Numbered from the stretch's first letter, positions 19,017 to 24,653 are shown. The stretch is 64,000 nt of DNA from Gemmatimonadaceae bacterium (GCA_051859245.1 JBHYGA010000006.1:224001-288000); one strand, 5' to 3'. Numbers and translations: made by a program. The notes: generated by a model not told the origin, from the letters alone.

Positions 19017-19574
19017 ATGAAGAACGTATTGAAGGCCGTGGCGTTGACCGCCGTCATGGCGAGTGTTGTTGCAGCACAAAAGCCATTGCGAGCGGCGCCT
19101 GGTACCGCTGTGAAGATCGCGGTGGTCGAGTTCACTCCGGTTGATGATGCCACAATCATGACCGACAACGCCAAGCGCTGGTTGCAGTCACAACTATCAG
19201 CCACGTTGCACGACACCCGAAAGTTTGATGTCTACGATACACGTCATACCCGGCGCGCAACGCAGAACAATCTTCCGGCGATCAACCATGACAGCTCCAC
19301 GGTGGCCGCGGTAAACGCAGGCAAAGAGCTCGGTGTCGCCTACGTGCTCACGGGCGTCGTGACCAGGTATACGCCCAAGGGAGACGGCGACTTCGGGTAC
19401 ACCACGATTCGCACGCGTCTGGTGGACGTTGCGACGGGCAAAGTCAAACACGTTGGTGAAACAACGCAGAAAGGCTGGGGCAAGATGAACACCACCGGTG
19501 AAGCCGAGATGCAGGCGAAGGTGATGAAGCCCGCGATTGACTCGATCACGGCCACGCTGTTCGCGGCCATGTGA
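19017..19574 (+). CDS. CsgG/HfaB/TolB-N-like secreted protein
   Basis: Signal peptide; IAVVEF...KFDVYD...GKELGVAYVLTG...RLVDVATGKV pattern; GAGG RBS. Confidence 0.75.
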   Translation: MKNVLKAVALTAVMASVVAAQKPLRAAPGTAVKIAVVEFTPVDDATIMTDNAKRWLQSQLSATLHDTRKFDVYDTRHTRRATQNNLPAINHDSSTVAAVNAGKELGVAYVLTGVVTRYTPKGDGDFGYTTIRTRLVDVATGKVKHVGETTQKGWGKMNTTGEAEMQAKVMKPAIDSITATLFAAM

Positions 19575-19630: not shown

Positions 19631-20308
19631 TCAGGCGTGTCTGCGCGTGCGTCGCACGGCAATCAACGCCGCGGCGCCGACGACCAGTAGCGCGATCGAG
19701 GAAGGTTCTGGTACAGTGATCGCCGCGCTTTCGAAGGTGGCGACGAACTCGTTGTCGATGTCCGCGGTATTGCTCTCGGCCCATTGACACGTCGAGAGGA
19801 GCTCGGCCGTATCATCACCGCAGCTATATGCAAAAATCGAGGCGCCGCCGTCGTATGAGTTGAACCACTCACCATCGAGGCGGACACGTCGGTATGCGAG
19901 ATTGCCCGACGTGCTGAGCAGAAACGCAACGTACTGCGCGCCTGGCGTGACGGTCAGCTCGCCAGTGGTGAAGTCCACTCGCTCCTGCGGACAGCATTCG
20001 GGTGTATCCCTCGGCCCACTGCTATACAGCACTTCTCCAACCGGCATCGAGCCGTTCCACTGCATCAGATACGCTTCGTAGCTCGAGACCAGACCTAGGC
20101 CGCCGCCCGAAAGCCAGAACGAAAACTGCGTCAGTGTTGTTGCGCCAGCTGGTGCGGTGAACGTCTGACCGAAGCCACTGCTGACGCCGCTGGTGAGGTA
20201 TTCACCCGTTCGCGTGTCGATCGTTTGTGCACTTGCGACACCAGCACCGGCGAGTGTCGCAGCGCTGGCGACAAGCGCAACGGTCCATCGTCGAAAACTC
20301 ATGAACAT
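19631..20308 (-). CDS. PEP-CTERM sorting domain protein
   Basis: Signal peptide (ASA-Q); C-terminal VPEPSSIALLVVGAAALIAVRRTRRHA; GAGGAG RBS. Confidence 0.9.
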   Translation of the reverse strand: MFMSFRRWTVALVASAATLAGAGVASAQTIDTRTGEYLTSGVSSGFGQTFTAPAGATTLTQFSFWLSGGGLGLVSSYEAYLMQWNGSMPVGEVLYSSGPRDTPECCPQERVDFTTGELTVTPGAQYVAFLLSTSGNLAYRRVRLDGEWFNSYDGGASIFAYSCGDDTAELLSTCQWAESNTADIDNEFVATFESAAITVPEPSSIALLVVGAAALIAVRRTRRHA

Positions 20309-20552
20309 ATTCACTCCTCGAAAGAATCGATAAAGATGAGCGCGCTGAGCGCCAGCGTCTCGCCACTCGTCATACGGAATTCTCGCGTCCAGCCGGACAT
20401 TGTGATCCGTGTGCTTCAGCACGCGCGATGCGTGAGGTGTCAGCGGTGTTCGTGGTCGATGTCTGAAGTTCAGCCTGCTTTCCGTACGCAGGTGCAGGAG
20501 CAGTGCTTGTTGCTCCTTCGATACATCCACCATACGCGTTTCAGGAGTTCTC

Positions 20553-20969
20553 GTGAACATCAAACAACTCGCGCGGCGAAGTGTGCTCGCGGCGTCCGGC
20601 CTCGCGCTCGTTGCGTGTCAGGACGCGCCGACGACACCATCGATCCGTGAGGTACCAGTGTTGGCCAAGTCAAAACCGCAGTCGGCACCGACCGTCGTGC
20701 CATTGAGTCCGTCTGCGCTGCGCGTCGATGCCCTGCGCGATGCATTGGACCGCGTGCAAACCGCGTTGGTGTCGGACGATCGCGCGAAGGCAATTGCGGT
20801 TGGTCTGCGGCAGGCGATCAGCGCCCTTGAACGCGGCGATTCGCAGAGCGTCGCGCGGGCGCTCAAGGGCGTCGAACAGACACTCGAATCGTACACCGCA
20901 GCCGACGCGGCAATGGCTCCTGATCTCGATGTGCTGCGCCTCGCCTTGCGCACCGCCGCCTCAAGCTGA
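20553..20969 (+). CDS. Hypothetical helical lipoprotein
   Basis: AGGAG RBS, lipobox LVAC, amphipathic helical C-terminal half. Confidence 0.7.
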
Positions 20970-20994: not shown

Positions 20995-21669
20995 ATGACT
21001 ATGCGCGATACGCCATCACGCGCCGTTCGGCGGCGATTCTCTCTGCCGTTGCTGGCGCTCACCATCACCGCTGCCTTCGCCCTGCGTGCTGCACCAGTCT
21101 CCGCCGCGGCACTGCCTGAACGATCAACCGATTCCGATGTGCTGTACGCCTGCTTCATTCCTGGCAGCGGCACCATCTATCGCATCAAGACCACGGATCC
21201 CGCCGAAACCTGCAAGTCGGCCAATCACATCCCGCTGCAGTGGCTGGCGGATGGCCCGCAGGGGCCGCAGGGTCCGATCGGCCCACAGGGGCCGCAGGGA
21301 CCGGCAGGCCCCGCTGGCCCGATCGGGGACGCGGGTGCCATTGGCCCCGTCGGACCGGTGGGTGTCCAGGGAACGACGGGCCCGATCGGACCGGCCGGTG
21401 AGCGAGGACCGGGCGGATCGGCGGGCATCGAAGTGATTGAGGTGTCGATTGAGAACGCCGTTGGCGCCGAGGACCAGTCGCTGCTGGCCGAGTGCCCGGC
21501 CGGCAAAAAGATCATCGGCGGTGGATTCTCTCAGAATCCTTCGAACGGCAATGTCGGCGAGTCACGGCCCACCTCCGACAACACCGGCTGGTTCGTGTAC
21601 GTGAACGACCTCTGGCTCAGCTCACCAAATATCAAAGCGTTCGCAATCTGCGCGGTCTGGCTGCCGTGA
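20995..21669 (+). CDS. Secreted collagen-like protein, chain 1
   Basis: Signal peptide, Cys-containing N-domain (YACFIPGSG...TCKS), 20 Gly-X-Y triplets, C-domain [11 protein letters not shown]...CAVWLP. Confidence 0.88.
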
Positions 21670-21716
21670 TGCACGTCAAGCGCTCTCCACATTCTCAACC
21701 TGCGGAATACATCACG

Positions 21717-22373
21717 ATGTCTCTCCACAAATCTCAGCGCGTGTGGCAACGGTGCGCGCTTGCCCTCTTGCTTGGTAGCGCACTGGCTGCGCCCGCTCTT
21801 CACGCCGATTCGCTTCGGTCAACGTCCGCGCACGACCCGGAAGCCATCTACGCCTGTTATGTGCCTGGCAGCGGTGCCATGTACCTCATCAAGACCACAG
21901 ATCCGACCGAAACGTGCAAGTCGGCGAGCCACATCCCGTTCCAGTGGCAGGCGACCGGACCGGCCGGTGAGCCGGGTCCGCAGGGACCCGCTGGCACAGT
22001 GGGTCCGCAAGGGCCGATGGGTCCAATCGGTCCGGCGGGGCCTGCCGGACCTCAGGGCCCGACCGGCCCGGCCGGGCTTCAAGGCCCGACCGGCCCGCAG
22101 GGAGCCGCTGGGCCAGGCGGATTCTCCGGCGTTGAAAAAATTGACGCGGATATCTGGAATGCGTGGGCCGACACCGACGGGACCGTCGTTGCGCAGTGCC
22201 CTGCCGGCAAGAAGGTGCTCGGAGGCGGATTCACGTTCCATCCTATCATTGGCCGGGTCGCCGAGTCGCGCCCCTCTGCTGACCGGACCGCGTGGGTTGT
22301 CCACTACACGCACCTTGGCGCCAGCCAAGGATGGCTCGGCGCTTGGGCTTTATGCGCCAATTGGGTGCCATAA
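21717..22373 (+). CDS. Secreted collagen-like protein, chain 2
   Basis: Same architecture, 20 Gly-X-Y triplets; alternative start at 21669. Confidence 0.88.
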
Positions 22374-22429
22374 CAAGAGCATCATAAATACACTCGCTTT
22401 ACACAATAGCTCACACATAGGAGTTCACA

Positions 22430-23089
22430 ATGTTGGCTTTAGAATCGAGACGCCGTCGCACTGATGTACGGCGATCCGTGCTCGCCGCAGTGACAGTCTG
22501 CGTCCTGGCGCTGCCGATCGCTCGCGCCGGAGCCATGCCGAGTACGCATCTGGATGACGAGATCATCCACGCCTGCTTCGTTCCGCAGAGCGGCACGCTG
22601 TACCGCATCAAGGCCACCGACCCCACGGAGACGTGCAAATCGGCCCAGCATGTGCCCATTCAGTGGAACATCACGGGAGACGTTGGGCCGGAAGGCGCGA
22701 CGGGAAGCGCCGGGCCGGCGGGTCCATCGGGGGCGAAGGGTCCGCAGGGCGCTGCAGGACCCGTCGGACCGCAGGGCGACGCCGGGGCGGTGGGACCGGC
22801 TGGCGCCAAAGGCGCGCTGGGACCCGCCGGACCAAACGGCGTTGTCGGCATTGAAGTGGTGAAGGTCACGGAGCAGCACGACTGGATCAGTTTTGATCAT
22901 CAAGTCTGGGCGTACTGCCCTGCCGGCAAAAAGGTGATCGCCGGTGGCCATTCCGTTGCCCCGAACGTTGGGCGCGTCACCGAATCGCGGCCGGAACCCG
23001 ACAACAAATCGTGGTATCTCTACGTGGACAGTCTCGCTGGCAACTCGCCGGATGTCACGGTATACGCCGTGTGTGCACCGTGGCCGTAA
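22430..23089 (+). CDS. Secreted collagen-like protein, chain 3
   Basis: Same architecture, 20 Gly-X-Y triplets; AGGAG RBS. Confidence 0.88.
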
Positions 23090-23090
23090 G

Positions 23091-24653
23091 CTACCAGTCC
23101 GTTGGCTTGTAGTCCTTCAGAAACTTGCCCCACACATGCGTGCCGGTGTTGATGCCATCAATGATCGGATCAACAATGCGCGCAGCACCATCGAGAATAT
23201 CCAGCGGCGGATGAAAGCGATGCTCGGCCACCTTGCGCGCGGCAATCTCCGCTGGATCCTCGTCGGTCACCCAACCCGTGTCCACCGCGTTCATGTGAAT
23301 GCCGTCGGTGTAATAATCCGCCGCCGCTGTGCGCGTCATCATGTTGAGCGCCGCTTTCGCCATGTTCGTATGCGGATGACGCGTCGTCTTGAACTTGCGG
23401 TAGAACTGTCCTTCCACCGCTGACACATTCACAATGTGTTTGTCGCGGTTTGGCGTGCGCAGCATGAGTGGCTTGAGACGCGCATTGATCAGGAACGGTG
23501 CGACCGCATTCACCAGCTGCACTTCGAGCAACTCCACGCTCGGTACCTCCGCCATCAGCATGCGCCACGAGTTGCGATCGCGCAGATCCACCTGCTGCAT
23601 GTCCTGATCCAGCTGTCCCTGCGGAAACAGATGCGCCTGCGGTGACGCTTCGTCTGGCAACAACGCGATCTGCGACAGCTCGGCGGCGTGCGTGAGGCCG
23701 GCAACACTGCCGAGTTGTTTTGTGGCAATCGAGGTGCTGCTGTCGGCACCCGTGCTCTCTGGCAGCATGTTGTACGAGCGAACGCCCTCGTACGCGCCGA
23801 GCACTTTCTGGATGTGCGCTGGCATGTTGCCAATCGACGCCGTTTCCAGATCCATCATGTGCTTGTAAAAGTCAGGCGGGCGCCGCACCGTCTGACACGC
23901 ATTGTTGATGATGAAGTCAAGACGGTCGTGCGTTTCGTTCAACTGATGACAAAACGCTTCAACACTCGGCGTGTGACGCAGATCGAGACCAAAAATTTCG
24001 AGCCGGTGTGACCATTCTTCAAAATCCGGCTCCATCGCGTAGCGCGCCGCGGAATCGCGCGGGAAACGCGTGGTCACAATAAGATGTGCACCGGCGCGCA
24101 ACAGCTTGATGCCCGCCTGGTAGCCGATTTTTACGCGACCACCGGTGAGCAGGGCGACGCGTCCAGACAAATCCGCCAGCTCGGTGCGCTTGGCGTAGTT
24201 GAACGCCGCGCAACTCGGGCAGAGCTGGTCGTAAAAGTGATGCAGTACATCGAACGACTGTTTGCACACATAACAGTGCTGCGCTTCAATCGCCTCGCGA
24301 AAATCAGGATCGTCCACCGTTTCCTGTTCATCGCCGCTCGGCAGGGCGTAGTTCGGCGTGGTGAACACGGTTTGCCGGCGCAGCGAGCGGATACCGGTGC
24401 TATTGAGTTGCGCCTCGGCGTCTTTCACGCGTTCCTGCCGCTCCGACTTTTTCTGGCGCTTGGTGGCTTTGACCAGCTGGCGCCGCAGAATGGCATCCGG
24501 GCGGGACACCTCACCGGCGGCGCGCAGCAGGCGATTGCGCTCCTCTTCGGAAATCTCAAGCAGACGCGCACGGTCCGTGGCCAGCGCTTCGAGCAGCGCC
24601 GTGGCTTCGCGGACCTGGGCCAGGAAATCGGGGGACTGGGGCATAGCCTTCAA
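23091..24653 (-). CDS. Extended SDR family oxidoreductase with N-terminal CxxC..CxxC
   Basis: TGGRVKIG, INNA, VNVSA, NAVDTGW; CYVC...CPSC. Confidence 0.85.
   Translation of the reverse strand: MKAMPQSPDFLAQVREATALLEALATDRARLLEISEEERNRLLRAAGEVSRPDAILRRQLVKATKRQKKSERQERVKDAEAQLNSTGIRSLRRQTVFTTPNYALPSGDEQETVDDPDFREAIEAQHCYVCKQSFDVLHHFYDQLCPSCAAFNYAKRTELADLSGRVALLTGGRVKIGYQAGIKLLRAGAHLIVTTRFPRDSAARYAMEPDFEEWSHRLEIFGLDLRHTPSVEAFCHQLNETHDRLDFIINNACQTVRRPPDFYKHMMDLETASIGNMPAHIQKVLGAYEGVRSYNMLPESTGADSSTSIATKQLGSVAGLTHAAELSQIALLPDEASPQAHLFPQGQLDQDMQQVDLRDRNSWRMLMAEVPSVELLEVQLVNAVAPFLINARLKPLMLRTPNRDKHIVNVSAVEGQFYRKFKTTRHPHTNMAKAALNMMTRTAAADYYTDGIHMNAVDTGWVTDEDPAEIAARKVAEHRFHPPLDILDGAARIVDPIIDGINTGTHVWGKFLKDYKPTDW

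Follow-up and report, generated by a model that had tools for sequence, protein, structure and literature searches.

A stretch of 64,000 nucleotides from a Gemmatimonadaceae bacterium (GCA_051859245.1 JBHYGA010000006.1:224001-288000; the window hereafter stands for this whole stretch) carries three tandem collagen-like genes, here named A, B and C. Each encodes a run of Gly-X-Y triplets between an N-terminal domain (N-domain) and a C-terminal domain (C-domain), and the question raised by the locus is whether the three diverged chains join in one trimer, as was proposed in a preliminary description under the heading of a C1q-like heterotrimeric collagen. Judged from modelled structures, the C-domain is one module of the double-layered beta-prism known from the PCSK9 V-domain, APCbeta and the resistin head, and is not C1q-like. 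As to chain composition, we lean slightly toward A, B and C joining in mixed trimers, in the simplest case with one chain of each, over three separate homotrimers, and hold this tentatively, at just short of an even chance. The cluster is composed as follows.

20553..20969, plus strand: small lipoprotein gene heading the cluster, an open reading frame of 138 amino acids with lipobox ..LVAC and a helical C-terminal part.
20995..21669, plus strand: gene A, 224 amino acids, with leader, N-domain (21130-21252), 20 Gly-X-Y triplets (21253-21432) and C-domain module (21433-21666).
21717..22373, plus strand: gene B, 218 amino acids, with leader, N-domain (21834-21956), 20 Gly-X-Y triplets (21957-22136) and C-domain module (22137-22370).
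22430..23089, plus strand: gene C, 219 amino acids, with leader, N-domain (22553-22675), 20 Gly-X-Y triplets (22676-22855) and C-domain module (22856-23086).

Both the reading frames and the triplet counts confirmed the gene anatomy given in the preliminary description. Each chain consists of a leader, an N-domain of about 40 amino acids with two Cys, three residues linking the conserved Trp of the N-domain to the first Gly, one unbroken run of exactly 20 Gly-X-Y triplets (ending GIE, GVE and GIE in A, B and C, respectively) and a C-domain of 77-78 amino acids with two Cys. B and C are 50% and 45% identical to A. The gap-free alignment claimed from the first Cys onward held throughout, save for a one-residue gap near the end of C, two positions from the C-terminus (W-P where the others have WLP/WVP). 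The Pfam family Collagen (PF01391) was matched by A, B and C at 31.6, 34.1 and 36.6 bits (cut-off 27.2), and no other Pfam family was detected in the three proteins. The leaders, judged by eye only, resemble signal peptides with a basic start, a hydrophobic run and an Ala-rich end, suggesting that A, B and C are exported. Leaders of the A type (window 20995-21060, and the homologues P0002, P0164 and P0004) begin with RRR followed by F/L-rich residues, for example RRRFSLPLL, which recalls the twin-arginine motif.

In the in-register comparison of A, B and C, the collagen parts were found to diverge most, with 51-61% nucleotide identity and 23-38% amino acid identity at the X/Y positions. The N-domain, at 64-75% nucleotide identity, is the best conserved part between the paralogues (mean column identity 75%), and the heads, at 36-45% amino acid identity, are the most diverged globular part. 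The genes are hence diverged paralogues with stalks of equal length, as had been noted before. Because the collagen parts diverge most in register, the equal stalk length does not come from recent duplication or gene conversion; the equal triplet count reflects shared ancestry and not chance, and may be kept by selection. The stalk DNA of all three genes is only weakly repetitive. Pro occupies 9-14 of the 20 X positions per stalk, Gly is invariant in the collagen runs of all family members, and a junction motif (S/A)G(Y/I/V)E, for example SGYE, is conserved beside the module. The 60 residues of the stalk would extend over about 17 nm if they form a triple helix, as is probable from this composition.

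For identification of the head, a profile of the three C-domains was searched against 1.84 billion representative sequences at a threshold of E<=0.001, and 2552 proteins were obtained. No Pfam or NCBIfam model covering the module was found. The top matches were mostly non-collagen, secreted proteins with several copies of the module per chain. Counting with a hidden Markov model in 153 relatives gave one module in 8 proteins, two in 13, three in 102, four in 11, five in 15 and six in 4, and relatives of about 500-530 amino acids carry about 12 Cys, that is, six modules. Ranking by summed score favours multi-module proteins; four modules are still rare, and three and six common.

The fold was then compared by modelling of a relative with three modules, P0036 (from an alignment of 53 such proteins). 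A single compact body with six strands per module was predicted (predicted local distance difference test score, pLDDT, 83.8; predicted template-modelling score, pTM, 0.82), and in this single-chain model the three modules pack round a pseudo-threefold axis, an arrangement that in the case of A/B/C would take three chains. Foldseek search of the PDB with this model returned the C-terminal V-domain of PCSK9 first (E 1.7e-8; 7anq_A with template-modelling score TMt 0.66), followed by APCbeta of Toxoplasma gondii PLP1. The profile of the three-module family matches APCbeta also by sequence (5ouo_A, E 5.1e-6), whereas the profile of the window's own three C-domains gave nothing significant against PDB sequences (best E 0.053); the sequence link between the window module and APCbeta is therefore transitive. 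In the model of A (alignment of 46 family members), the C-domain was predicted with pLDDT 88-96 as a six-stranded unit (residues 142-222, bracketed by Cys167 and Cys219), and the N-domain as three-stranded. No PDB match to this model was obtained at E<=0.001; resistin 1rgx_C stood weakly on top (E 0.053, prob 0.85), with 1rfx_A and 1rh7_A also listed, and the next matches were PCSK9 modules with prob up to 0.99 over about 80 columns and a root-mean-square deviation of 3.3-3.9 A. The PDB title of 2qtw itself remarks on the resistin likeness of the PCSK9 domain.

APCbeta is described in the cited part of PMC5943054 as three repeats of about 80 residues, each a disulfide-tied 4+2 six-stranded sandwich, arranged as a beta-prism with threefold pseudosymmetry. 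It is named a "double-layered beta-prism" in 10.1101/399204, the cited portion of which gives the PCSK9 V-domain as the only other case of the fold. Resistin, according to the section cited of PMC8253364, is a trimer with one such head per chain, held together by an N-terminal coiled coil. From the homology within the module family together with the fold matches, each window protein would contribute a third of a prism, set behind a collagen stalk, and three chains would then most naturally complete one prism. Since the head module family works in threes, the completion of one head by three chains is well founded. The C1q-like head of the preliminary description did not stand, as Pfam gave no gC1q match and a module of the resistin/PCSK9 type was found instead. 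Among the bacterial relatives, P0026 carries an I9 propeptide, an S8 subtilase and three modules, which is the domain order of human PCSK9.

The lipoprotein gene and genes A, B and C are separated by gaps of 25, 47 and 56 nucleotides, and no terminator-like site between them was found by scanning the window, indicating that the four genes probably form one transcript. AGGAG is located 9 nucleotides 5' of the ATG of gene C. No sigma-70-like promoter was found in the scan, the sigma-70 consensus being uninformative for this phylum. Neither the N-domain nor the module occurs elsewhere in the window, A, B and C being the only carriers. Homologues of the lipoprotein, both with the lipobox Cys, are encoded directly upstream of the collagen genes in a related locus, L003 (5441-5902, 50% identity), and directly upstream of a pair of sister genes, D and E, in locus L001 (5480-6004, 39% identity). 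The lipoprotein gene thus belongs to the cluster, and the cluster of four genes, the lipoprotein followed by A, B and C, is a real and conserved feature. These positions suggest the lipoprotein as a candidate membrane tether or assembly partner. Its assignment to the FIMAH family was rejected at 18.7 bits against the Pfam cut-off of 24.8; all its Pfam matches were sub-threshold, and a protein atlas search gave as top score 0.82 to an unnamed cluster, without a lead.

As the stalk length was at the centre of the original proposal, we examined its distribution in the family. The N-domain profile gave 46 proteins, and five further B-type proteins came from searching with the B head. A tree of N- plus C-domains contains five starred clades, A to E; the five added B-types are not in the tree and are included in the clade counts. 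Clade A (5 proteins) has 20 triplets, or 10 triplets, one extra residue and 10 triplets in two of the five. Clade B (8 proteins including the window's) has 20, except that six of the eight have 19 and another residue in place of the last Gly, and clade C (8 proteins including the window's) has 20. In clades D and E (7 proteins each), 18 triplets are found, with 17 in one D protein and a replaced Gly in one E protein. The Trp of the N-domain and CPAGKK are 84 residues apart in 3/5 A, 8/8 B and 8/8 C proteins (19/21 of A/B/C), 85 in the other two A proteins, and 78 in 6/7 D and 7/7 E proteins (13/14 of D/E). Other proteins with the same N-domain have 0, 5, 8, 11, 23 or 30 triplets (P0191-P0194, P0172, P0185-P0187, P0177, P0180, P0003, L005), so that the stalk is a spacer of variable length family-wide and of fixed length within each clade. 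In P0191-P0194 the 2-Cys N-domain is joined straight to the module without collagen, and in P0195 it stands on a protein of 473 amino acids for which precomputed Pfam annotation gives YadA-type repeats plus an S74 chaperone domain; from these contexts, the N-domain resembles a general N-terminal element of trimeric fibres.

A complete A/B/C triad of 1:1:1 orthologues was detected in all four loci that are long enough: the window, a 634918-nucleotide contig (P0002/P0173/P0155), a 5986-nucleotide contig (P0164/P0197/P0161) and loci L002 plus L003 of one metagenome-assembled genome (MAG). For the two contigs, the co-location was deduced from same-size contigs in the search tables. The window's A, B and C each pair with their own L002 counterpart with starred support. 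D and E stand together in L001, and P0174 and P0171 are likewise assigned to one contig of 1793 nucleotides.

Within a locus the stalks match in length, and between locus types they differ. The preliminary description had proposed a test for such behaviour, and the spacings of 84 and 78 and the counts of 20 and 18 agree with it; however, one ancestral change explains this difference, and the tandem pair L045, with 41 and 14 triplets, is a counter-example. In the best tree, D and E form a weakly supported clade, and a clade of A, B and C was not rejected (approximately unbiased test, p-AU 0.474). Tree-shape tests rejected neither the D+E nor the A+B+C clade, and a parallel length change was not demonstrable by them. 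Co-variation of stalk length is therefore unproven, inheritance of a single length change being sufficient. Two independent pairs, L010 (10/10) and L007 (16/17), lend mild support to matched lengths; in the single genes related to these two pairs, which share their N-terminal repeats, 7-15 triplets are found.

The distribution of the architecture was surveyed by scanning 185,579 species genomes with the patterns TDP[AT]ETCK and CPAGKK[VI][IL][GAS], which identified 66 loci. A module-bearing open reading frame was present in 64 of the 66, and a Gly-X-Y run of at least 7 triplets together with the module in 36. Triplet totals of these range from 7 to 162. Collagen-plus-module proteins occur above all in Actinomycetota and also in Gemmatimonadota, Thermomicrobiota, Nitrospinaceae, Paceibacterota and Steroidobacteraceae; the loci closest to the window are from Gemmatimonadaceae MAGs. 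Loci with more than one copy are listed here with their triplet counts.

L001: tandem, 18/18.
L002 (with L003, same MAG): tandem A'/B'/C', A' split over two contig ends, B' with 19 plus Asp replacing the last Gly, C' with 20.
L007: tandem, 16/17.
L010: tandem, 10/10.
L045: tandem, 41/14.
L054: two copies 3.5 kb apart, 12/11.

In Acidobacteriaceae/Terriglobales (L026-L031, L035 and L036), small proteins of 121-175 amino acids, measured from stop to stop, contain a single module without a Gly-X-Y run. Three further relatives, P0087 (8/9/8 triplets), P0107 (7/8/7) and P0042, are single chains of three successive units, each unit consisting of a basic or His-rich linker ending KR/RR (or KP/KT), 7-9 Gly-X-Y triplets and one module. 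By sequence, these resemble a fusion of three collagen-plus-module genes into a single chain, and they could represent a polyprotein cut at dibasic sites or form an intramolecular triple helix.

Co-assembly of A, B and C is supported by the presence of exactly three genes kept 1:1:1, the probable single transcript, the identical stalk length and the high conservation of the N-domain between the paralogues. In the module family, three unlike modules per assembly occur most often (102/153), and P0087 and P0107 hold three unlike units of Gly-X-Y run plus module that are of near-equal length. In addition, B alone (6/8 orthologues) lacks the final stalk Gly, which A (5/5) and C (8/8) keep, an asymmetry that a fixed chain order would allow. 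A second chain-specific irregularity is a one-residue insertion confined to A, and irregularities of this sort are also present in the chains of C1q. Several observations weigh against co-assembly. The sister locus type, represented by D/E of L001 and by P0171 plus P0174, has two genes with 18 triplets each and not three, and 30 of the 36 collagen-plus-module loci have a single gene within the fetched flanks, some being cut by contig ends; conservation of a triplet locus applies to A/B/C (4/4 complete loci) and extends neither to the two-gene sister type nor to most relatives, which are single. Single-gene relatives presumably form homotrimers, as only one such gene is present per locus, making the homotrimer the default for the architecture. 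One extra stalk residue is found only in A in two of five A-types (P0002, P0164) and is absent from their B and C partners; such an insertion would put a bulge into a mixed helix. A single ancestral change from 20 to 18 triplets, or the reverse, explains the lengths because the D+E and A+B+C clades are both compatible, and the stalk length may be stable for lack of slippage, the stalk DNA being hardly repetitive. The pair L045 (41/14) stands on the same side, as does P0094, in which 13 Gly-X-Y triplets are followed by three modules in one chain; collagen with one module per chain is thus not the sole design, and P0094, if trimeric, would carry three prisms. Bacterial collagens are, moreover, described as homotrimers in the cited part of PMC8968730. 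A complex prediction, made for ABC only, scored 0.34 with mature A+B+C and 0.20 with a control in which another sequence took the place of chain 1; it was counted for neither side.

The same observations bear on the alternative of three separate homotrimers AAA, BBB and CCC, a small battery of stalked binders with different heads whose equal length was inherited and perhaps kept since every stalk would have to span an equal distance from one shared anchor. The majority of single-gene relatives, the two-gene loci such as L001, the sufficiency of one ancestral length change, the easier fit of the A-only insertion and the description of characterised bacterial collagens (PMC8968730, as far as cited) all agree with it, as does the strong divergence of the heads among the globular parts, which is expected for different ligands. 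The copy number of exactly three in all four complete loci speaks against such a battery, for adhesin batteries usually vary; the N-domain is so well conserved between the paralogues that no obvious means to keep the chains apart is seen, and assemblies of three unlike modules are the commonest in the module family. We regard separate homotrimers as a serious possibility, somewhat below an even chance and only slightly behind co-assembly. Proteins acting as single-module monomers, with Gly-X-Y as a flexible spacer instead of a triple helix, would agree with the relatives that combine the same N-domain and module with 0, 5, 8 or 11 triplets (P0191-P0194, P0172, P0177, P0180) and with single modules without collagen (e.g. 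L026-L031); given 20 unbroken triplets rich in Pro at X, invariant Gly across family members, the conserved junction motif and the strong preference of the module family for threes, monomers are improbable. Even less probable is a phage or tailocin remnant or cargo, in which the genes would encode collagen-like tail fibres with a receptor-binding head. PHROG tail-fibre families match with E down to 1.7e-17, mainly over the Gly-X-Y part (residues ~80-146) with few extending to ~160-194; the R1 pyocin fibre is among the weak fold matches of the A model (6cl5_A, prob 0.97), and the N-domain occurs also on the fibre-like P0195. Against this origin, the window neighbours are housekeeping genes with no phage gene seen among them, the window scans gave no tRNA gene or Rfam match, and a viral fold library gave two matches at E<=0.001, both of low template-modelling score (0.31-0.36) and unnamed or uncharacterised. 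The present data do not separate ABC from AAA/BBB/CCC, and the heterotrimer is a plausible and good hypothesis.

Under co-assembly of A, B and C, the proposed mechanism is as follows. The disulfide-bonded small N-terminal beta domain, the Gly-X-Y segment and the six-stranded module would constitute one chain of an exported, collagen-stalked binding protein. Three chains would zip into a triple helix, and their three modules would then close into one prism head, the likely ligand-binding end, following the plan of resistin with a collagen stalk replacing the coiled coil. In a mixed trimer the head would be asymmetric, resembling the three dissimilar modules found in the single-chain relatives, and the lipoprotein may serve as membrane tether or assembly partner. 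The stricter form, an obligate one-of-each ABC heterotrimer of fixed chain order, with the 78-residue modules as the chain-selection domain, an asymmetric beta-prism head and tethering by the lipoprotein, is rather doubtful. In this form the system would have originated by splitting of a three-module prism over three genes, or would represent the precursor of fused three-unit chains such as P0087.

Among the other neighbours, a gene for a PEP-CTERM protein is located divergently upstream of the cluster (19631-20386, minus strand; Pfam PEP-CTERM 23.3 bits, cut-off 20.7), and a homologue of 47% identity was found in L002 (2173-2823, minus strand), adjoining the orthologous triad on the opposite side. 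Only the lipoprotein gene adjoins both locus types (L001, L003), the PEP-CTERM homologue being present also in L002. Just upstream of the PEP-CTERM gene, a 185-amino-acid protein with a signal-like start and without Pfam family is encoded at 19017-19574 (plus strand). Convergent with gene C, the minus strand at 23091-24653 encodes a short-chain dehydrogenase of 520 amino acids, its stop 1 nucleotide past the C stop; its long N-terminal extension includes a stretch resembling a zinc ribbon, of the form CxxC...CxxC (Zn_ribbon_8 in Pfam, weak, E 0.28). Further neighbours code for an ABC transporter and permease, methyltransferases, a dehydrogenase, a Rieske protein and cytochrome bd.

New among bacterial collagen-like proteins is a predicted 17-nm stalk carrying per chain one third of a prism of the resistin/PCSK9-V/APCbeta type, encoded as a diverged triad behind a lipoprotein gene. 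In our literature search we found no paper on a natural bacterial heterotrimeric collagen, none on collagen-like proteins of Gemmatimonadota, and none on a collagen stalk joined to this prism module or linking PCSK9, resistin and trimer. Heterotrimeric collagens in bacteria currently need borrowed animal chain-selection domains, according to the part cited of PMC8968730. The obligate ABC heterotrimer, if true, would be the first natural heterotrimeric collagen outside animals. A natural bacterial triad whose small head module may sort the three chains would represent a convergent evolution of the C1q plan and offer a compact selection domain for collagen engineering. Whatever the chain composition, a large unannotated bacterial module family of 2552 representatives is tied to the fold of the PCSK9 V-domain, APCbeta and resistin, and such a prism can be assembled from a single three-module chain or, presumably, from three one-module chains.

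The system shares with the bacterial collagens Scl1/Scl2, BclA and Lcl a Gly-X-Y segment beside a globular trimerising domain and the match to Pfam Collagen. It differs from them in the absence of an LPXTG anchor, in the head fold, in repeat DNA that is hardly repetitive, in a length fixed among orthologues and in the conserved triad with a lipoprotein gene; the Scl1/Scl2 and Lcl families (NCBIfam NF038330, NF038329, NF046116) were matched at 31-44 bits against cut-offs of 325-500, with essentially only Gly-X-Y covered. With the PCSK9 V-domain and APCbeta it has in common a disulfide-linked module of about 80 amino acids and six strands; in those proteins, however, three modules lie in one chain, whereas the window encodes one module per chain behind a collagen stalk, in three genes. 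Resistin/RELM (1rgx, 1rfx, 1rh7) likewise carries one six-stranded, disulfide-bonded beta-sandwich head per chain behind an N-terminal stalk (PMC8253364, in the section cited), but its stalk is an alpha-helical coiled coil and its head is disulfide-rich, while the window stalk is collagen and the window module has two Cys. No match to Pfam Resistin was found in A, B and C. In complement C1q, chains A, B and C are encoded by three tandem genes, and a collagen stalk is followed by a C-terminal globular head made by the three chains. The window system resembles it in a collagen stalk followed by a C-terminal head and in three adjacent paralogous genes. It differs from C1q in that A, B and C have no gC1q/TNF-like domain (Pfam matches at E<=1), the module being resistin/PCSK9-V-like, and in giving no sign of a six-trimer bouquet; its stalk has only 20 triplets, and its heterotrimer is a hypothesis. 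The term C1q-like is true of the plan, and not of the fold.

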